DNA from: a virus
UHGV virus genome: UHGV-0327156
Strand: one strand, 5' to 3'
DNA length: 13,007 nucleotides
Shown here: positions 4,771-13,007 of the stretch, piece after piece
Numbering within the stretch: position 1 is the first letter of the stretch
How the letters are laid out: each line of letters opens with the position of its first letter
Translations under genes and position numbers: made by a program
Notes under the pieces: model-generated
Databases searched by the model: none
Told to the model about the DNA's origin: nothing
The model's input: the letters and a program-made list of their open reading frames with translations, nothing else

Positions 4771-4943
4771 TGTCAGGAGTCCTGAATAGTGATTAGAGGA
4801 GTCACATGTCGGCATCAGTTTCCCGACGATGCGCATCCTCCGCCATCAGTCCCGGATGGCTTATCACTGACACAACAGCACCTTAGCGAATCGCGGGGCG
4901 CGACTCAGTAGCCTTGCCGTGTATTCATCACGGCGAGGTATTC
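4771..4943. promoter_or_regulatory. Divergent late promoter region between O (leftward) and P (rightward), with repeated dyad elements
   Basis: 173-bp intergenic between divergent late operons. Contains GTCGG-N10-CCGAC (4808..4827) and CCATC-N7-GATGG (4843..4859), which share a CATCAGT core 31 bp apart, plus a 6-bp perfect inverted repeat GCCGTG-N7-CACGGC (4917..4935) just upstream of the P RBS. Position of the P2 late promoters is established; exact promoter elements were not resolved. Confidence 0.55.
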
Positions 4944-6716
4944 ATGACCATCACCACAGACACCACTCTTTTACACGACCCGCGTCGTCAGGCGGCGCTG
5001 CTGTACTGGCAGGGATTTTCCGTGCCGCAGATTGCCGCCATGTTGCAGATGAAACGCCCGACGGTGCAGAGCTGGAAACAGCGCGACGGCTGGGACAGCG
5101 TTGCCCCCATCAGCCGTGTCGAAATGAGTCTGGAAGCGCGGCTGACCCAGCTCATCATCAAACCGCAGAAAACCGGCGGTGACTTCAAGGAAATTGACCT
5201 GCTCGGACGCCAGATTGAACGGCTGGCACGGGTCAACCGTTACAGCCAGACCGGCAACGAGGCAGACCTTAATCCGAACGTCGCTAACCGCAACAAAGGC
5301 GGGCGTCGCAAACCGAAAAAGAATTTTTTCAGTGACGAGGCCATCGAAAAGCTGGAGCAGATTTTCTTTGAGCAGTCTTTCGAGTATCAGTTGCACTGGT
5401 ATCGCGCCGGGCTTGAGCACCGCATCCGCGATATCCTGAAATCCCGCCAGATTGGCGCGACGTTTTATTTTTCCCGCGAGGCGCTGCTGCGCGCCCTGAA
5501 AACCGGTCATAACCAGATTTTTCTGTCGGCCAGTAAAACGCAGGCGTATGTGTTCCGCGAATACATCATCGCCTTTGCCCGGCTGGTTGACGTTGACCTG
5601 ACCGGTGACCCGATTGTCCTGGGCAATAACGGCGCAAAACTGATTTTTCTCGGCACCAACTCCAACACCGCGCAGAGCCATAACGGCGACCTGTACGTCG
5701 ATGAGATTTTCTGGATCCCGAATTTTCAGGTACTGCGTAAGGTGGCATCAGGTATGGCCTCACAGAGTCACCTGCGATCGACCTATTTCTCCACTCCGTC
5801 CACGCTGGCGCACGACGCCTACCCGTTCTGGTCGGGTGAACTGTTCAACCGGGGACGCGCCAGCGCCGCCGAACGCGTGGAAATCGACGTCAGTCATAAC
5901 GCCCTTGCCGATGGGCTTCTCTGTGCAGACGGCCAGTGGCGGCAGATTGTCACCATTGAGGACGCCCTGAAAGGTGGCTGCACGCTGTTCGACATTGAGC
6001 AGCTCAAACGCGAAAACAGCGCCGACGATTTTAAAAACCTGTTCATGTGTGAATTTGTTGACGACAAGGCGTCGGTGTTCCCGTTCGAGGAGTTGCAACG
6101 CTGCATGGTCGACACGCTGGAAGAATGGGAAGACTATGCACCCTTTGCCGCCAATCCGTTCGGCTCCCGCCCGGTATGGATTGGTTACGACCCGTCACAC
6201 CGTGGCGACAGCGCCGGATGCGTGGTGCTGGCACCGCCGGTGGTGGCCGGTGGCAAATTCAGAATACTTGAGCGTCACCAGTGGAAAGGCATGGACTTTG
6301 CCACTCAGGCTGAATCCATCCGCAAACTCACCGAAAAATATAACGTCGAATACATCGGTATTGATGCCACCGGCCTCGGTGTCGGCGTGTTCCAGCTCGT
6401 GCGCTCGTTCTATCCCGCCGCGCGCGACATCCGCTACACGCCGGAAATGAAAACCGCAATGGTGCTCAAGGCAAAAGACGTCATCCGCCGTGGCTGTCTG
6501 GAATATGACGTCAGCGCCACCGACATCACCAGCTCGTTTATGGCTATCCGCAAGACCATGACCAGCAGCGGACGCAGTGCCACCTATGAGGCCAGCCGCA
6601 GCGAGGAAGCCAGCCACGCCGACCTCGCCTGGGCGACCATGCACGCCCTGTTAAATGAGCCACTCACCGCCGGTATCAGCACCCCGCTGACATCCACCAT
6701 TCTGGAGTTTTACTGA
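4944..6716 (+). CDS. P: Terminase large (ATPase) subunit gpP-like, 590 aa
   Basis: ORF track starts at 4914 (non-ATG); the ATG at 4944 is preceded by GAGG with 5-nt spacing and gives 590 aa (MTITTDTTLLHDPRRQAALLYWQGF...). Its TGA stop overlaps the Q start (TGATG). Confidence 0.9.
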   Translation: MTITTDTTLLHDPRRQAALLYWQGFSVPQIAAMLQMKRPTVQSWKQRDGWDSVAPISRVEMSLEARLTQLIIKPQKTGGDFKEIDLLGRQIERLARVNRYSQTGNEADLNPNVANRNKGGRRKPKKNFFSDEAIEKLEQIFFEQSFEYQLHWYRAGLEHRIRDILKSRQIGATFYFSREALLRALKTGHNQIFLSASKTQAYVFREYIIAFARLVDVDLTGDPIVLGNNGAKLIFLGTNSNTAQSHNGDLYVDEIFWIPNFQVLRKVASGMASQSHLRSTYFSTPSTLAHDAYPFWSGELFNRGRASAAERVEIDVSHNALADGLLCADGQWRQIVTIEDALKGGCTLFDIEQLKRENSADDFKNLFMCEFVDDKASVFPFEELQRCMVDTLEEWEDYAPFAANPFGSRPVWIGYDPSHRGDSAGCVVLAPPVVAGGKFRILERHQWKGMDFATQAESIRKLTEKYNVEYIGIDATGLGVGVFQLVRSFYPAARDIRYTPEMKTAMVLKAKDVIRRGCLEYDVSATDITSSFMAIRKTMTSSGRSATYEASRSEEASHADLAWATMHALLNEPLTAGISTPLTSTILEFY

Positions 6717-7750
6717 TGAGCAAGAAAAAAGGGAAAACACCGCAACCTGCGGCAAAAAAAATGACCGCCAGCGCCCCGAAAATGGAGGCATTCACCTTTG
6801 GTGAGCCGGTGCCGGTACTCGACCGCCGTGACATTCTGGATTACGTCGAGTGCATCAGTAACGGCAGATGGTATGAGCCACCGGTCAGCTTTACCGGTCT
6901 GGCAAAAAGCCTGCGTGCTGCCGTACATCACAGCTCACCGATTTACGTTAAACGCAATATTCTGGCCTCGACATTTATCCCGCATCCGTGGCTTTCGCAA
7001 CAGGATTTCAGCCGCTTTGTGCTGGATTTTCTGGTGTTCGGTAATGCGTTTCTGGAAAAGCGTTACAGCACCACCTGTAAGGTCATCAGACTGGAAACCT
7101 CACCGGCCAAATATACCCGTCGTGGCGTGGAGGAGGATGTTTACTGGTGGGTGCCGTCCTTCAACGAGCCGACAGCCTTCGCGCCCGGCTCCGTGTTTCA
7201 CCTGCTGGAGCCGGATATTAATCAGGAGCTGTACGGCCTGCCGGAATATCTCAGCGCCCTTAACTCTGCCTGGCTGAATGAGTCAGCCACGCTGTTCCGC
7301 CGCAAGTATTACGAAAACGGCGCTCATGCCGGATACATCATGTACGTCACCGATGCCGTGCAGGACCGCAACGATATCGAAATGCTTCGCGAAAACATGG
7401 TGAAGTCAAAAGGCCGCAACAACTTTAAAAATCTGTTTCTCTATGCCCCGCAGGGGAAAGCTGACGGCATTAAAATTATCCCGCTCAGTGAAGTGGCAAC
7501 GAAGGACGATTTTTTTAATATCAAAAAAGCCAGCGCCGCTGACCTGCTGGACGCGCACCGCATCCCCTTTCAGTTGATGGGCGGCAAGCCGGAGAACGTC
7601 GGGTCGCTGGGTGATATTGAGAAAGTGGCAAAGGTCTTTGTCCGCAATGAGCTTATCCCGTTACAGGACAGGATTCGGGAAATAAACGGCTGGCTCGGTC
7701 AGGAGGTCATCCGCTTTAAAAACTACTCACTGGACACAGACAACGGCTGA
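6716..7750 (+). CDS. Q: Portal protein gpQ-like, 344 aa
   Basis: ATG at 6716 overlapping the P stop; 344 aa as recalled for P2 gpQ; last late gene before cos. Confidence 0.9.
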   Translation: MSKKKGKTPQPAAKKMTASAPKMEAFTFGEPVPVLDRRDILDYVECISNGRWYEPPVSFTGLAKSLRAAVHHSSPIYVKRNILASTFIPHPWLSQQDFSRFVLDFLVFGNAFLEKRYSTTCKVIRLETSPAKYTRRGVEEDVYWWVPSFNEPTAFAPGSVFHLLEPDINQELYGLPEYLSALNSAWLNESATLFRRKYYENGAHAGYIMYVTDAVQDRNDIEMLRENMVKSKGRNNFKNLFLYAPQGKADGIKIIPLSEVATKDDFFNIKKASAADLLDAHRIPFQLMGGKPENVGSLGDIEKVAKVFVRNELIPLQDRIREINGWLGQEVIRFKNYSLDTDNG

Positions 7751-7755
7751 ACATC

Positions 7756-7777
7756 GCCGCCTGCGGGCGGCTTTTTT
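7756..7777 (+). terminator. Rho-independent terminator after Q
   Basis: GCCGCC-TGCG-GGCGGC stem-loop followed by TTTTTT, starting 6 nt after the Q stop. Confidence 0.75.
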
Positions 7778-7919
7778 ACACCCCGCCATCACGCCCTCAC
7801 ACGCTCATCACCGCACAAAAAATCCCGCAGACACACCAACGCCTCAACGGGCAGACTAAGCGCCGTCACGACGCGCTCAGACGCTGAAAAAATAAAATCA
7901 GCACCACCGCCAGCGCGCA

Positions 7920-7938
7920 GTGCTTTCCCCGCCTCGCC
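7920..7938. other. cos site (19-nt cohesive end, P2-type)
   Basis: Plus strand reads GTGCTTTCCCCGCCTCGCC, the reverse complement of GGCGAGGCGGGGAAAGCAC, which I recall as the P2 cohesive-end sequence; it lies next to the portal gene as in P2. Confidence 0.8.
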
Positions 7939-8039
7939 CGCCCGCTTCATGGAGCGCTTTTAATGCAGTTGCAATAACACATCAAAACATCGTCAATACA
8001 GGCGATTATAAACAATAAAAAACGATCGCTGCCGCATGC

Positions 8040-8061
8040 AAAATCATGCACTAAATGCATG
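8040..8061 (-). terminator. Putative terminator of the cargo gene
   Basis: CATGCA(8045..8050)/TGCATG(8056..8061) stem with a 5-nt loop, followed on the minus strand by AUUUUG; about 40 nt downstream of the 8102 stop. Short stem, so moderate confidence. Confidence 0.4.
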
Positions 8062-8101
8062 TATTGAAGGGAAATTAGGAACGTGCTCGTTTGGGTCTAA
8101 A

Positions 8102-8998
8102 CTATGATTTCGACACAACTATTTTCCCCAAATCAAAACTAAATTCGACATCCCCATTTACGATATTTTCATTTGTCACATGCTCATCAAAAAGGTCACT
8201 AACATCATACCCCGACTGAAACACTGGGCTCATGATAGCCACGTCGGTGAATGGCTCTTTTTCATGTGTTATATAATATTGACCATAAACATTTGCAGAT
8301 TTATCTGCATCATTAAGACTAAGGACTGTTTTTGCTTTGACTTCAGGCATCAGAGAAAAATCAATATTATTCAACAAACACAGTAAGATGCCTGCTATTG
8401 CTCTCCTGTTATTATCAAGCGGCATCAAGTCCACCCCTGGAATCTCCTTCCGAAGCAATATTTTCAGCTCATTAAATAAAGAGTCGAACTTAATTGCGTC
8501 AGAACAATTGAGTAACGACAAAGCTTCATTAATCATTCGCCCTTCATTGGAACCAATTTCTGGTGTTAACTTACAAACACCATCATTAACAATATACGAT
8601 TTCTTGTTATTAAGCTTCTTCCTCGCTGTAATTACCTGCCCCCCCTTTAAGTTTAACTTCTCCTTTAAAAACTCATCACTGAACATTCTTAATTGCAGTC
8701 TGATTAATGTAGGTAAGTATTTCGGGTATTCATTTAACTCTGGTTTAACAGCATGCTTATCGCGTCCAAATTTTAAACTTAATAACAAATGATTCCTCAG
8801 CATGATATCCTTTATCTCGCCTTGATCTCTCCGATGATTATGGGCAACAAAACTCCCAATTTCAAAAATACACTTGGGCGCACTCGGCAACTCACGGGCC
8901 GTAACAAAAAGAACATCAATATCACTATCAGTGAAACTCCCATCCTTTAATCTTCTCAACACTCTCTCTATTCTTGAGATTGCTTTACTTTTATTCAT
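8102..8998 (-). CDS. Hypothetical protein, 298 aa; AT-rich accessory cargo at the P2 old/tin hotspot; candidate anti-phage defence or exclusion protein
   Basis: Clean ATG at 8998..8996, uninterrupted 298 codons, GC about mid-30s % by eye against more than 50 % in flanking phage genes. Same orientation as the early operon. No Walker A, HNH, nucleotidyltransferase or HEPN motif that I can recognise. Confidence 0.8.
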   Translation of the reverse strand: MNKSKAISRIERVLRRLKDGSFTDSDIDVLFVTARELPSAPKCIFEIGSFVAHNHRRDQGEIKDIMLRNHLLLSLKFGRDKHAVKPELNEYPKYLPTLIRLQLRMFSDEFLKEKLNLKGGQVITARKKLNNKKSYIVNDGVCKLTPEIGSNEGRMINEALSLLNCSDAIKFDSLFNELKILLRKEIPGVDLMPLDNNRRAIAGILLCLLNNIDFSLMPEVKAKTVLSLNDADKSANVYGQYYITHEKEPFTDVAIMSPVFQSGYDVSDLFDEHVTNENIVNGDVEFSFDLGKIVVSKS

Positions 8999-9026
8999 GA
9001 CATTCTTTCAACCTTAATCAATATTT

Positions 9027-9055
9027 AATTTAAATAAACCATTCTCATACGCCAA
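9027..9055 (-). promoter_or_regulatory. Candidate sigma70 promoter for the cargo gene
   Basis: Minus strand TTGGCG (9055..9050), 17-nt spacer, TAAATT (9032..9027), about 30 nt upstream of the ATG. Weak matches in AT-rich DNA; could be chance. Confidence 0.25.
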
Positions 9056-9280
9056 CCATACCTGTGACACCTGACAAACCAAATAAAAACAAAGGTACAG
9101 CGGATATTGGTATGTACAGCTATATTACACATAAACTCATGTTAGTAACATAAGATCTTCTTGTGAATATTTGTAATTTATTAGTTCACCAACATTAATC
9201 TTTCCAACCGTTATAAATCCAATCATATGCTGATACTCAAATGATGGCCAACTACCACCTCTCGCTGTTCGTTGTTCCCT

Positions 9281-9315
9281 CCAGCAGCACTGGAAGCATG
9301 TTTCAGTACTGCTGG
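9281..9315 (+). terminator. Strong stem-loop (12-bp stem, one mismatch, 11-nt loop) followed by GGTTTTCT on the plus strand
   Basis: CCAGCAGCACTG / CAGTACTGCTGG inverted repeat at 9281..9292 and 9304..9315. The U-tract is only on the plus strand, so it looks like a terminator facing against the early operon, at the junction between the conserved early genes and the AT-rich cargo. Confidence 0.35.
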
Positions 9316-9324
9316 GGTTTTCTA

Positions 9325-9528
9325 TCAACAACGTGGTAGCAGTGCAATTTTAGACTGTTCTATATCGTTAAACCGCACGTAATTATCCCGGACTATTTCG
9401 GCACACCCGACCAACTCGTCGGGCGTCAGATTTTCGTTGACCATAATCTGCTGTAGACGGTGAACAATAGCCATCAGCTTGATATTTTTAGTGTTATGTT
9501 GCGGTATCTCGCCTGGTATTCTGTGCAT
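9325..9528 (-). CDS. Small hypothetical protein, 67 aa, translationally coupled to the upstream gene
   Basis: ATG at 9528..9526 overlaps the TAA stop of the DUF3850 gene (TAATG). The ORF track's 71-aa version begins at a GTG. No recognisable motif. Confidence 0.55.
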   Translation of the reverse strand: MHRIPGEIPQHNTKNIKLMAIVHRLQQIMVNENLTPDELVGCAEIVRDNYVRFNDIEQSKIALLPRC

Positions 9529-9983
9529 TATCCAAGCCACCCGTTTTGCTTTGCACGCTCAATCTGTTCATCTGAATAGTTCCATGCTCCATCCGTGGCA
9601 ACCATTGCCCCGCCAGACATCCCCGTCTCTGGTTCATACATAACAGCAAGGCCGAGCTGATGCATAATTTCATGATTAATTCTGAATACCAGACCACGCT
9701 CACTAAGTTCTTTCCAGTTCACAATCTCATATGCGCCTGTATTAAGCAGCTCAATACTTAGCAAGACATAATCTTCCAGCCAGTCTGACAGGTCAGTAAC
9801 ATCTGTTATCCGGGCTTCAACCTTTCGCCCCGTATACACACCCTGCCCCCATTCATGCAAAATCAACGTGTCTCCGCGCTCATAATTACGGTCATTTTTC
9901 CGAAACTCTGCGCGTTTCTTTCCTTCCAGCACAAGGTCGAAATATTTTGCGTGCAGCTTTACCTCGTGAATTTTTGCCATCAT
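9528..9983 (-). CDS. DUF3850/ASCH-like (PUA-fold) protein with a C-terminal HExxH-containing extension, 151 aa
   Basis: ATG at 9983..9981 overlaps the A stop (ATGA). The N-terminus KIHEVKLHAKYFDLVLEGKKRAEFRKNDRNYERGDTLILHEW matches the DUF3850 signature I recall (HElKi...yF..vl.G.K.fE.RkNDR....GD.L.L.E). The C-terminal part contains HEIMH. Confidence 0.7.
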   Translation of the reverse strand: MMAKIHEVKLHAKYFDLVLEGKKRAEFRKNDRNYERGDTLILHEWGQGVYTGRKVEARITDVTDLSDWLEDYVLLSIELLNTGAYEIVNWKELSERGLVFRINHEIMHQLGLAVMYEPETGMSGGAMVATDGAWNYSDEQIERAKQNGWLG

Positions 9984-12265
9984 GTCCACTCCATTACTGT
10001 TGAGAATCCCGGCCACTCATCAGCGACCGGATATGTGAATTTTTTCCCGTCATAATTTACAGTCGCGCCACGCGCCAACGCCTCAAGCTCCCATCGCTGC
10101 GGCCTTATACCGTTCTGAGCAAGGTCAACGCGGATACGGGTAATTTGCATTCTTTCCGACCGGGTCAGTCTGGCCGATGGTGCAATTTCATGTGGTTTTA
10201 ACGGGCTTCCGTTTCTTTGCTGACGATTTGGCGTTCTCAGGCCGTGTTTTAATGCGCCCCTGAGCGCCCTCACAACCTCCGGGTCATTCCATTCGATAAC
10301 ACCGTCATCAACCAGATTAAGCACTGCTGCGGCGTGCTCAGAAGGTGTGGGAGCCGGTAACGAAGTATCACAACCGGTGACCTTTCCACAGTTATTGACA
10401 GGACTCCGAGGCGCGGCGATGCCGCTTTTTAAAGTCAAAGGCTCAACGACCGGAACTTTCGGCACAATGCGCCAGTCCGTCGTTCTGGTGATATGAATAT
10501 GACGCGCGCCGAGATGCGGCGCGTAAATGCCGACCACTCTCTCGACTTCTTCCTCGTACTCGTTAACGTCATCCGACGGGCTACGGGCAACCCTGACAGT
10601 CTGACAATCGCGTGGGACATTTGCCCCGCCCTGCGCGCTGATATACAACGCAAAATCACCACTGTCTGCGGCGGCGCGTGCAGCCTCGACGCGTTCGTCA
10701 AACTCATCAGCAATGCTGACGCCGCGAGGCAATTTGCGTAGTTCACGGTAAGCCCCCATTGTCGGCAGACCAACCGTTTTAAATTGCGGGATACGCCACG
10801 TTGACGCCCATGCGGTAACAGCCGCTGCAGTGTCTTTCAGCGGTCTGCCGGTATCGTTATCGAGCTGCCCATCCAGTGCATAGCCGTCGATATTTTTTGA
10901 GATGTATTTCGCGATATACCCCGCAGCACCGCCCCGATTAAGATGTTTTGCCTGAAAACGGTTTCGCGCAGCTCCTCTTTCGTCGCCATCCTCTTTGAGC
11001 GCGTAGCGACGCATGATTTCGATAATCTGGTTACGCTGGCGTGGATTACAAAAAAGCATCATATGCCAGTGCGGCGTTCCGTCGTGGTGTGGCTCGACGA
11101 CTCGCAAACCGTAGACCTGTAAATCATTATCCTTGAATGCCGTGCGCATCAGGCTCCAGATACGGCAGAGATAACGCTGCGCATCCTTTGGATTAAATGC
11201 CTCATCGTTCCAGCCGTGATTTAGCTGGACGGTTTTACTTTCGCCTTTTCCAACCTGACGTGTCGGGTGATACTTTGACGGCGCGGTCAGCGTGATAAAC
11301 ATCCCCACATCACCCTCTGCAGCGGCGTAACGCTCAATACCGGCAATGGTGTTCATCAGCTCCATCCGGCGAATTTCAGGATTAGAAATACTGCCCATCA
11401 CCTTACTGATAAGGTCGATGCGCTCGCCTGTTTCCCTGTTTTCGAGATCACACGATTTAAGAAATTCCAGATTTGCCTGGCGGCGTGCACGCACATCACG
11501 AATGGCATGTTTACTGGCATAAGGAGAACGGTCTTTATTGACCTCCCCGACAGCAATCAGTAACGCCTCATGCCAGCGCATACGCTGGCCTTTAAGCTGA
11601 CTAATCCACCACTCATCGTTAAACAGACGGGCAATGGCAGAATATGCCTGCCTCGTGGTCATCTGTCCTTTACGGTATTTTTTCCAGTAGAGAGGGGAAA
11701 TATTGAAAGCTCGTGCAGCGCCAGCAACATGACCATACAGGTGATCCTGAGCCTCATCCGTAAACAGTGATTCTTTCTCGCCATGCGCATCCACCCAGGC
11801 ATCGCTGAGTTCCTCATACATCATGAAAAGCTGCGATGAGATACGGGCGGCAAACTTTTTCAGCTCCTTGTCATTCATTCCCGGCAGGCGCGCATAGTGG
11901 TCACGCTCAGCCAGAAACAGCATCGACGCGTCGGTGTTCATTTCATGGCGCTGATTCACACGCTCAATGCGCGGCCATAAACGACGCTGAAAAGTGGATG
12001 TGAGGAAATAAAACCCGTGCACCGGGCTTTTATTGCGCCGGATGTAGTCATAGCGTGACGTAAACAGCGAGCGCAAAAAGTAAGGCAGGCGGTTAATCGT
12101 GGATAAAACACCTTGCACCTGACGCATCTCGTCACGTGTAAGGGGTCTTTCGCGCCCGACAGCCTCGCGTGGCGCGTTCCATGCATAAGCACCGGTAAAC
12201 GTCTTACCGGTGCCTGCGGCAAATGCTGACGGAGGGACAAAACGCCCGGAGGCTTTAACGGCCAT
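9980..12265 (-). CDS. A: Rolling-circle replication initiator endonuclease gpA-like, 761 aa
   Basis: The ORF track's 775 aa start at a TTG (12307); the internal ATG at 12265..12263 gives 761 aa starting MAVKASGRFVPPSAFAAGTGK..., the P2 gpA length and N-terminus I recall. Confidence 0.9.
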   Translation of the reverse strand: MAVKASGRFVPPSAFAAGTGKTFTGAYAWNAPREAVGRERPLTRDEMRQVQGVLSTINRLPYFLRSLFTSRYDYIRRNKSPVHGFYFLTSTFQRRLWPRIERVNQRHEMNTDASMLFLAERDHYARLPGMNDKELKKFAARISSQLFMMYEELSDAWVDAHGEKESLFTDEAQDHLYGHVAGAARAFNISPLYWKKYRKGQMTTRQAYSAIARLFNDEWWISQLKGQRMRWHEALLIAVGEVNKDRSPYASKHAIRDVRARRQANLEFLKSCDLENRETGERIDLISKVMGSISNPEIRRMELMNTIAGIERYAAAEGDVGMFITLTAPSKYHPTRQVGKGESKTVQLNHGWNDEAFNPKDAQRYLCRIWSLMRTAFKDNDLQVYGLRVVEPHHDGTPHWHMMLFCNPRQRNQIIEIMRRYALKEDGDERGAARNRFQAKHLNRGGAAGYIAKYISKNIDGYALDGQLDNDTGRPLKDTAAAVTAWASTWRIPQFKTVGLPTMGAYRELRKLPRGVSIADEFDERVEAARAAADSGDFALYISAQGGANVPRDCQTVRVARSPSDDVNEYEEEVERVVGIYAPHLGARHIHITRTTDWRIVPKVPVVEPLTLKSGIAAPRSPVNNCGKVTGCDTSLPAPTPSEHAAAVLNLVDDGVIEWNDPEVVRALRGALKHGLRTPNRQQRNGSPLKPHEIAPSARLTRSERMQITRIRVDLAQNGIRPQRWELEALARGATVNYDGKKFTYPVADEWPGFSTVMEWT

Positions 12266-12530
12266 ATGAGCCAAAAGCCTCTGAACAACGCTTGCTGAGT
12301 TGCTCAACCTGCGCGTTTAAATCAGCAAAAGACTTTGCGCTTCCGGTCAGAATATCGTGATGCATCAGGCCGGAAACGAGCTGGCTTAATTTCGGGTAAT
12401 AACCAACCACCGCCAGCCATTCCTGACCGGCGTTTTTACCGCTTTCCGCTCTCTTTTTCTCGTGGAGAATAAACTGGAAGCTGTCACTGGTAACGACATA
12501 ACGTTCGCCAATTTCAATACGAATACTCAT
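12255..12530 (-). CDS. Small early-operon protein, 91 aa, function unknown (P2 orf8x-like position)
   Basis: ATG at 12530..12528 with GGAGAA 6 nt upstream; overlaps the A start by 11 nt. Composition like the phage backbone. Confidence 0.7.
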   Translation of the reverse strand: MSIRIEIGERYVVTSDSFQFILHEKKRAESGKNAGQEWLAVVGYYPKLSQLVSGLMHHDILTGSAKSFADLNAQVEQLSKRCSEAFGSYGR

Positions 12531-12697
12531 GCCGTTCTCCGGTAATGTTTGTTTTTTGCTTCAAAAACTGACTGACAGGAAACACAACGCGTGGCTGACG
12601 GATAAGCCGCACGACGGGCAGCAGGTATTGGCGCGTCACACTCTTCGCAAACGATCGCAGAAGCACCGCAATGTGTGCTTTGATGTCCTGTTCTCGT
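12527..12697 (-). pseudogene. TraR/DksA-family C4 zinc-finger ORF lacking a start codon (5' truncated or frameshifted)
   Basis: Minus-strand frame encodes ...IVCEECDAPIPAARRAAYPSATRCVSCQSVFEAKNKHYRRTA*, closely resembling the TraR/DksA zinc ribbon (CEACGNPIPEARR...CVECQ...RKHY). Its TGA overlaps the ATG of the 91-aa gene (ATGA). There is no ATG/GTG/TTG between the upstream in-frame TGA (12700..12698) and the zinc finger, and the frame opens where GC content drops. Confidence 0.55.
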
Positions 12698-12736
12698 TCA
12701 GTTGTATTACTGAATAACGCCTTAAAAATCGCCGTT

Positions 12737-12985
12737 ATGAAAAATGGCGATTTGTCTCTTATTCAACTTGGTCTTGATAAAGAAAAACGCGAAATAACTG
12801 AGTCTGTTATCGCGATTTATCAGAACGAATTAAACCTCCTGTCTGATGTGGTCAATTTGCTTGTTAAACGCGCTGTGTTTCACAAGCAAATCTCCTCCGT
12901 GGATGAACTGACGAAATTAACGACAGAAATCGCCAGCTATTGCGCTGATGAATTTAAAAACCTTAACGACAAAAGGAACTGGTAA
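12737..12985 (+). CDS. Hypothetical protein, 82 aa, first gene of an AT-rich plus-strand module
   Basis: ORF track gives 12671..12985, but its first 22 codons lie in the GC-rich TraR-like remnant. The ATG at 12737 begins the AT-rich segment (MKNGDLSLIQLGLDKEKREITESV...). Weak RBS. A possible TTGTAT/TAAAAAT promoter pair lies at 12702..12729. Start uncertain. Confidence 0.45.
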   Translation: MKNGDLSLIQLGLDKEKREITESVIAIYQNELNLLSDVVNLLVKRAVFHKQISSVDELTKLTTEIASYCADEFKNLNDKRNW

Positions 12986-13007
12986 TGCCGGACAACGTAG
13001 ATTTTAT
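12985..13007 (+). CDS. 5' end of a second plus-strand gene (MPDNVDF...), truncated by the window edge
   Basis: ATG at 12985 overlaps the TAA of the preceding ORF (TAATG), suggesting an operon; only 7 codons are visible. Confidence 0.3.

Follow-up and report, generated by a model that had tools for sequence, protein, structure and literature searches.

A low-GC cargo cassette in the cos-proximal hotspot of a P2-like prophage and its single candidate anti-phage gene

The window analysed here, a stretch of 13,007 nucleotides (nt) from the virus genome UHGV-0327156, is a P2-like (Peduovirus) prophage of Escherichia coli, and it contains a block of about 1.3 kb whose guanine-cytosine (GC) content lies far below that of its surroundings. 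This block is almost certainly exchangeable cargo of the hotspot that P2-like prophages carry beside their cohesive-end site (cos), between the replication endonuclease gene gpA and the portal gene gpQ. It holds one convincing gene, an open reading frame (ORF) at 8102..8998 on the minus strand, which encodes 298 amino acids (aa) and is listed as a hypothetical protein in RefSeq (WP_001043197.1) and as phrog_29586 in PHROGs. Judging from its location, its conservation and its analogy with characterised cargo, the most likely role of the product is lysogenic conversion: acting on its own, it would protect the lysogen against other phages. We assign a probability of about 0.6 to this explanation as a whole, hotspot cargo and anti-phage reading together, and the anti-phage function of the protein, argued by analogy, is in itself somewhat favoured. 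The locus is already known as the place where P2 carries old and tin, and the arrangement found here has already been catalogued; being a textbook locus, it leaves the island nothing new to add on genome architecture. The value of the island thus lies in its cargo, a compact single gene with relatives across Proteobacteria and Bacteroidota, which is unannotated in libraries up to 2026 and constitutes a new candidate at a known locus.

An AT-rich cassette between cos and gpA

The original prediction described, by eye, a fall in GC content over roughly 8040..9320, and the sliding-window profile bears this out. In 300-bp windows, GC content is 0.50–0.58 up to about position 7950, 0.35–0.40 across 7951–9300 and 0.42–0.47 up to about 10,000, after which it exceeds 0.5. 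The core of the block, 7980..9132, has a GC content of 0.366 against 0.50–0.57 in the backbone, and the 9358 windows of equal size elsewhere have a mean of 0.556, a standard deviation of 0.03 and a minimum of 0.484. The same difference is seen at third codon positions, where the GC content of the enclosed ORF is 0.37 compared with 0.54–0.72 in the portal, terminase, capsid and gpA genes. A recovery had been predicted at the gene of 67 aa that follows the block (9325..9528, minus strand); there is indeed a rise at this place, but it is only partial, to 0.45, and values above 0.5 return only near 10,000.

The surroundings of the block identify the locus. The segment 7950..9350 is 100% identical to a prophage of E. 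coli 13P477T, whose annotation places lysis, head, terminase, capsid and portal genes on one side, and a DUF3850 gene, the replication endonuclease gene gpA, cox, the repressor and the integrase on the other. The 19-nt cohesive-end sequence of P2, GGCGAGGCGGGGAAAGCAC, which is annotated as cosR in NC_001895, has a single exact match in the window, at 7920..7938 on the minus strand (0 matches in 200 shuffles), and the low-GC block therefore lies between cos and gpQ on one side and gpA on the other. The left flank is formed by the conserved gpQ (6716..7750, plus strand), a 344-aa ORF annotated as phage portal protein in the identical prophage, and the right anchor is gpA (9980..12307, minus strand), recognised by its ORF and annotation. 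Between the block and gpA, two further genes are found on the minus strand. One is the 67-aa gene mentioned above (WP_021517479.1, phrog_11386, identified by annotation and PHROG), which is 85–95% identical in P2-like phages and represents a semi-conserved shoulder. The other is a gene of 162 aa at 9528..10016, with DUF3850/ASCH and DUF7415 domains in Pfam, which resembles orf91 of P2 and is 97–99% identical across phages.

A hotspot between gpA and gpQ, beside cos, has been defined, in which 18,150 E. coli loci show 1650 arrangements, and old-tin together with three of eight further cloned systems from it were active against phages (Rousset et al. 2022, PMC9122126). A later preprint confirms that, among the defence hotspots of P2-like prophages, this is the principal one (Moura de Sousa et al. 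2026, doi 10.64898/2026.02.27.708500). The arrangement in the window appears in Table S5/supplementary file 6 of PMC9122126 as 'DUF3850/ASCH + hypothetical + hypothetical', with WP_001043197 and WP_021517479, and lies outside the systems which that paper describes as tested; in the literature, WP_001043197 was found in this supplementary table and in no paper text. Like the hotspot in general, the locus in the window combines conserved flanks with variable content and short, AT-rich cargo, and the cassette occupies the same position as old and tin in P2, between cos/portal and gpA and past the DUF3850 (orf91-like) gene. It differs from P2 in orientation, in that old-tin is convergent with gpA whereas the 298-aa gene is co-directional with it.

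Alignment with eight P2-like phages (BLAST), which share the flanks and carry other, unrelated cargo, shows that the block is not conserved among them and locates its breakpoints. On the left, homology ends at 7952–7989, mostly at 7973–7979, which is 40–50 bp past cos; this edge, at about 7980, is sharp, probably because the packaging signal cannot change. On the right, homology resumes at 9133/9136 in P22H4 and P24A7b, at 9250/9251 in YpM_50, a P2 isolate and Wphi, at 9269 in YpM_46 and 720R8, and at 9343 in P37. Identity to the other phages is 65–70% over 9133..9250 and 69–75% over 9251..9324, and rises to the values given above for the 67-aa and DUF3850 genes, so that the right edge is a gradient with no single junction. 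Two parts can thus be distinguished: a unique cassette without homology to other P2-like phages (7980..9132, 1153 bp), and a diverged spacer (9133..9324, GC content 0.38), which is 65–75% identical to the spacer of those phages and travels with the cassette. The two form a co-travelling unit of about 7980..9324, close to the extent of 8040..9320 first proposed.

The distribution of the block was determined in 5426 complete E. coli genomes and in a collection of 50,697 phage records. The left flank (7600..7979) has some match in 2156 of the genomes and a match of at least 80% coverage in 1533, and the corresponding numbers for the right flank (9325..10016) are 418 and 345. The island itself is present in 25 genomes, always with at least 99% identity and at least 80% coverage, and is absent from the phage records both as DNA and as translated protein (tblastn). 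The spacer follows this pattern: copies of 9133..9330 with at least 95% identity are confined to the 25 island-carrying genomes, whereas 27 others have it at about 70%, and all four of these that were inspected carry different cargo. These four (E. coli H10, USDA5905, IHE3034 and DG342-2) have, in the same slot, a conserved 243-aa hypothetical protein beside the spacer and a second cargo gene that varies (193, 232, 260 and 224 aa), which looks like nested swapping inside the hotspot. With common flanks and a rare block, the proposal of a horizontally exchanged cassette in a fixed P2-like locus stands. Since the junctions are scattered and the identity is graded, we infer homologous recombination in the flanks, and recombination within these conserved sequences is the most likely way in which the cassette was acquired.

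The low GC content in itself could have another origin. It may be an intrinsic property of this kind of gene or locus, selected or driven by mutation, and carry no mark of a foreign donor; such an origin is compatible with the hotspot explanation, and we regard it as possible, if unlikely. The cargo of all eight comparison phages has a GC content of 0.365–0.393 whatever genes it contains, so that low GC characterises the hotspot as such, beyond this one cassette. Moreover, in all 22 of the loci compared, whose hosts have GC contents of 38–69%, the DNA encoding the member of the cargo protein family is 2.5–21 points poorer in GC than what surrounds it. Nevertheless, few genomes have the block, its copies are almost the same in sequence, and most prophages that share its flanks lack it; whatever the cause of its composition, it has therefore been exchanged horizontally.

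The cargo gene and its protein

The 298-aa gene is under purifying selection, with ratios of nonsynonymous to synonymous substitution rates (dN/dS) of 0.11–0.17 where dS can be estimated, dS being saturated otherwise. At least 986 contigs encode the exact protein, invariably under the name 'hypothetical'. Its close homologues form 34 clusters of 42–99% identity, all from Enterobacterales, including Citrobacter, Klebsiella, Salmonella, Cronobacter, Serratia and Dickeya. In the three homologue contexts that were looked up, the gene lies in the same slot, with gpA and the portal gene on either side, and is on the gpA strand; homologues of 45–73% identity are found in this slot in a 186-like Dickeya prophage and in Klebsiella prophages. 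An exhaustive profile search (E ≤ 0.001) extends the family to 419 representatives, mostly of 290–340 aa, from marine Gammaproteobacteria, Pseudomonas, Burkholderiales and Bacteroidota. Among 76 aligned members, with identities down to 16%, R35, A52, H53, G60 and P92 are invariant, and F22, E46 and R57 are nearly so; conservation declines from the N-terminus to the C-terminus.

One homologue bears on the question of who benefits from the gene. At 4916–7855 of the locus taken from OZ061329.1 (GCA_964063365.1), an intact homologue of 295 aa is retained in a decayed P2-like remnant, where it is flanked by a 276-aa fragment of gpA and a 131-aa fragment of the portal protein, between ordinary chromosomal genes. 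This suggests that the cargo gene was kept after the phage had died.

The family matches none of the domains or systems searched. The 298-aa protein has no match in PADLOC (2023), Pfam (2025) or NCBIfam (2026); the 76 aligned members likewise have no match in Pfam or NCBIfam and nothing recurrent in PADLOC, and for ten distant relatives these three libraries gave nothing either. The sole result in PHROGs is a full-length match to phrog_29586, which is itself unannotated. No family is shared among the 97 ORFs neighbouring family members at 18 loci, and in the absence of a conserved neighbour the gene is therefore taken to act alone. The neighbours include genes for integrases, Fic, Schlafen-like and GNAT proteins. 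A toxin-antitoxin or other two-gene system was considered and rejected, as there is no recurrent neighbour family and no small-RNA or tandem-repeat signal; for a type III toxin-antitoxin or RNA cassette in particular, no tandem array and no Rfam match at the gathering score were found, and the leader of the gene is no more structured than chance would give. A second cargo gene was also rejected: the candidate, a 64-aa ORF at 9137..9331, is without annotation by the Prokaryotic Genome Annotation Pipeline (PGAP), overlaps a conserved hairpin and has a best PHROG E-value of 0.089, and the region is thus regarded as non-coding.

The structure of the protein was predicted with AlphaFold2 from a 31-sequence alignment, with a predicted local distance difference test score (pLDDT) of 90.7 and a predicted template modelling score (pTM) of 0.83. 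The model has a helical N-terminal part (residues 1–210) and a beta-rich C-terminal part (213–295). Foldseek searches of the model against PDB and BFVD returned nothing significant, and profile searches against PDB sequences gave no match. The conserved residues cluster at the junction of helices 3 and 4, in the motif FVAH-N-x-x-R-D-x-G. A weak Cas13b match in one relative had prompted the idea of a HEPN-domain RNase; the protein was not assigned to this class, because its motif is H-x3-R rather than the R-x4-6-H of HEPN domains, and no HEPN fold was matched. A relation to P2 Tin was likewise discarded (hhalign probability 0.3%), and the ATPase and TOPRIM domains of P2 Old have no counterpart in the 298-aa protein, which has no Pfam match. 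Speculatively, the N-terminal helical domain, which is the most conserved part and retains R35, E46, H53 and R57 throughout the family, would be the likely active or ligand-binding part. A basic, helix-turn-helix-like segment at about residues 108–144, with conserved K112, K118, G119 and R126, may contact nucleic acid, and the variable C-terminal beta domain may set specificity.

The protein is a candidate for an anti-phage function because over one third of those hotspot systems that were cloned are active, and because its gene is single, mobile and retained in a dead prophage. It shares with single-gene defence proteins of prophage hotspots, of which the DUF4238 protein validated at this same hotspot is an example, a size of about 300 aa, the lack of a partner and a mobile slot, and the combination of effector and sensor that is common among these proteins would fit its conserved N-terminal and more variable C-terminal parts. 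The likeness is one of context and architecture, as there is no similarity in sequence or structure to catalogued defence proteins. A comparable concept is found in integron defence cassettes, which are also compact, single-gene, swappable units (Darracq et al. 2024, preprint, doi 10.1101/2024.07.02.601686); the cassette in the window differs from these in having neither an attC-like repeat nor an integron integrase, and is apparently exchanged via its homologous flanks. The combination of a confidently predicted fold with no detectable solved relative makes the protein a candidate for a new defence mechanism. With somewhat less confidence than in the function itself, and at slightly less than even odds, WP_001043197.1/phrog_29586 may be proposed as the founder of a new family of stand-alone anti-phage proteins, characterised by a fold that is novel with respect to PDB and the viral library, by a putative site of R35, E46, H53 and R57, and by at least two kinds of mobile slot, namely the cos-proximal hotspot of P2 and 186 in Enterobacterales, and, in marine and soil bacteria, integron-like arrays and further variable regions.

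Several points weigh against a defensive role. Its assignment is a case of guilt by location, and no homology to a catalogued defence protein was found in PADLOC, Pfam or NCBIfam. The hotspot also holds cargo of other kinds, with partition systems in about one quarter of the loci and cytolethal distending toxin in about 2% (PMC9122126). In addition, sigma-70 promoter candidates are no commoner than in shuffled sequence, so that expression in the lysogen is a presumption.

The cargo may instead be an accessory gene with a non-defence role, a prophage regulator or nucleic-acid-binding factor, for instance, or an anti-defence or host-fitness factor. Some of these roles would serve the prophage itself, in lysogeny, in the interaction with a P4 satellite or in maintenance. 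An explanation of this kind is less probable than an anti-phage function. P2-like and 186-like phages of several genera carry the gene, in every case as a lone, exchangeable unit, and it is therefore cargo outside the conserved life cycle. Its intact copy in a remnant whose gpA and portal genes are broken suggests a benefit for the host rather than for the phage, and its relatives are scattered beside integrases, Fic and Schlafen-like genes, one of them in an integron-like array. We thus prefer the reading of the 298-aa protein as hotspot cargo with a protective function in the lysogen.

The integron-like array just mentioned belongs to an uncultured Colwellia metagenome-assembled genome (CAXBEX010000025; 8983–13340 of the extracted locus). 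There, the distant homologue is followed directly by a repeat of about 100 bp, which recurs past each of the next five to six ORFs on the same strand, at spacings of 490–1084 bp, and ends in GGCGTTAG or GTTGG. These repeats look like attC sites of an integron cassette array.

Expression and the two stem-loops

The leader of the cargo gene (8999..9132, 134 nt, minus strand) is AT-rich, with a GC content of 0.33; it folds no better than expected by chance (z = +1.3), and neither an Rfam family nor tandem repeats were found in it. Upstream of it, within the spacer, there is a sigma-70-like promoter candidate on the minus strand (9139..9167; TTCACA-17 nt-TAACAT), which matches the consensus at 9 of 12 positions. 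P22H4 and P24A7b, whose cargo is different, share the conserved block containing this candidate, and homology to these phages ends about 6 nt past the −10 hexamer, at the point where transcription would be expected to begin. The spacer may thus supply a promoter for cargo on the minus strand, a suggestion drawn from two cargo types only. If so, the spacer 9133..9324, travelling with the cassette and providing a promoter together with an insulating hairpin, could make up a portable expression unit; this is a possibility.

The original prediction had added that DNA of this composition would be silenced by H-NS until induction. H-NS prefers AT-rich DNA, and 1.3 kb with a GC content of 0.33–0.38 is the kind of DNA to which it would bind. 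A reading of the block as silent xenogeneic DNA of this sort, with little function in the lysogen, would agree with the chance-level frequency of promoter candidates. As the cargo is co-directional with the early operon, it could be read through after induction, provided that the hairpin at 9281..9315, which has no U-tract on the minus strand, fails to terminate. However, purifying selection on the gene is strong and the ORF is intact on at least 986 contigs, and the gene has been retained in a remnant that is no longer inducible. P2 old and tin, the characterised cargo of this position, are lysogenic-conversion genes with their own mapped transcript starts beside cos (according to the record annotation), and act from the prophage. 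Silencing until induction is therefore improbable, and cargo acting in the lysogen remains the better account.

The block was also said to be bracketed by two stem-loops, and these proved to be of very different kinds. The right one, at 9281..9315, is confirmed and strong: its arms of 15 nt are 87% complementary, its folding energy is −24 kcal/mol (z = −5.9 on the minus strand and −4.1 on the plus strand), and none of 200 shuffles folds as well. It begins 10 nt past the stop codon of the 67-aa gene, at the end of the early operon, and all nine aligned phages have it in this position, including P37, where BLAST homology has not yet resumed. Over this alignment, 13 base pairs are paired in 97% of cases, and three pairs have changed on both sides, in a compensatory manner. 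The covariation score is reached by none of 500 shuffles, and partners slid by 1–3 columns pair in 22–42% of cells. Covariation provides moderate evidence, as the sample is small and consists mostly of close relatives. The right hairpin is thus an element of the phage backbone, outside the unique cassette.

Its T-run, GGTTTTCT, lies on the plus strand only, whereas the adjacent operon is on the minus strand, and the hairpin was missed by a simple terminator scan. In P2, transcription of old-tin starts near cos and runs in the direction of gpA, on what is the plus strand of the window. The most plausible role for the right hairpin is therefore that of an insulator belonging to the backbone, which would probably stop convergent transcription of plus-strand cargo from entering the early operon, and would cap the early transcript. 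It resembles Rho-independent terminators in its position at the end of an operon, its strong, conserved stem and its T-run on the plus strand, but differs from them in lacking a U-tract on the minus strand, so that termination would be efficient on the plus strand and at best weak on the minus strand.

The left stem-loop (8045..8061, minus strand) lies 41 nt past the stop codon of the cargo gene; its stem of 7 bp, three of them G-C, closes a loop of 3 nt, and AUUUUG follows. Stem and U-tract are thus present, in agreement with its description as terminator-like, but at −8.3 kcal/mol it is no more stable than shuffled sequence (z = −0.33; 62 of 200 shuffles fold as well). No equivalent or conserved terminator was found downstream of the homologues in two other loci (L002 and L004). 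It is possibly a weak terminator of the cargo gene. In E. coli EC9952 (1703–2671 of the extracted locus) and 23CRST029, an IS903B element has entered close to the position of this hairpin, with cos on one side and the 3' end of the cargo gene on the other; the gene is intact in both. As regards the proposed bracketing, the right hairpin is real but stands in backbone-derived DNA, while the left one is inside the cassette, and the pair does not therefore mark its two ends.

That the stem-loops are recombination sites for cassette exchange, comparable to integron attC or other structure-specific sites, is very unlikely: although the breakpoints with five of the eight phages lie at 9250–9269, 12–31 nt from the base of the strong hairpin, the structure of that hairpin is kept while its sequence drifts, and a distant cargo relative sits in an attC-like cassette array, the cos side has no conserved hairpin, its own being weak, specific to the cassette and absent past the homologues, the breakpoints at 9133, 9250, 9269 and 9343 form the gradient expected of homologous recombination in diverging flanks, and the locus has no dedicated recombinase gene and no direct repeats flanking the block beyond short, chance-level matches. 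The right hairpin is hence not a recombination-site border of the cassette, and exchange by homologous recombination in the flanks is retained. Together with the graded right junction, this conserved boundary hairpin offers a landmark for studying cargo exchange in P2-like phages.

Other features of the locus

Further features were noted on both sides of the block. A hairpin resembling an intrinsic terminator (7756..7771, plus strand) begins 6 nt past the stop codon of gpQ; it consists of six G-C pairs followed by TTTTTT, with an energy of −14.4 kcal/mol and z = −2.6. A 53-aa ORF (7789–7950, minus strand) spans cos, and its equivalent in vB_EcoM-720R8 is annotated as a hypothetical protein; it is without PGAP annotation and is probably not a gene. 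On the gpA side, versions of the DUF3850 gene elsewhere are shorter than that in the window, the P2 Orf91 gene having 330 bp, the Wphi gene 282 bp and the Klebsiella prophage product 93 aa, from which it follows that DUF7415 is a variable extra part at the hotspot's edge. In the genome of E. coli 13P477T (NZ_CP019273.1), two places match the island with both its flanks, and the strain may hold two P2-like prophages. Finally, a second and milder dip in GC content, to 0.44–0.47, is found at 12300–13007, which corresponds by position in the identical prophage to the small early genes past cox.

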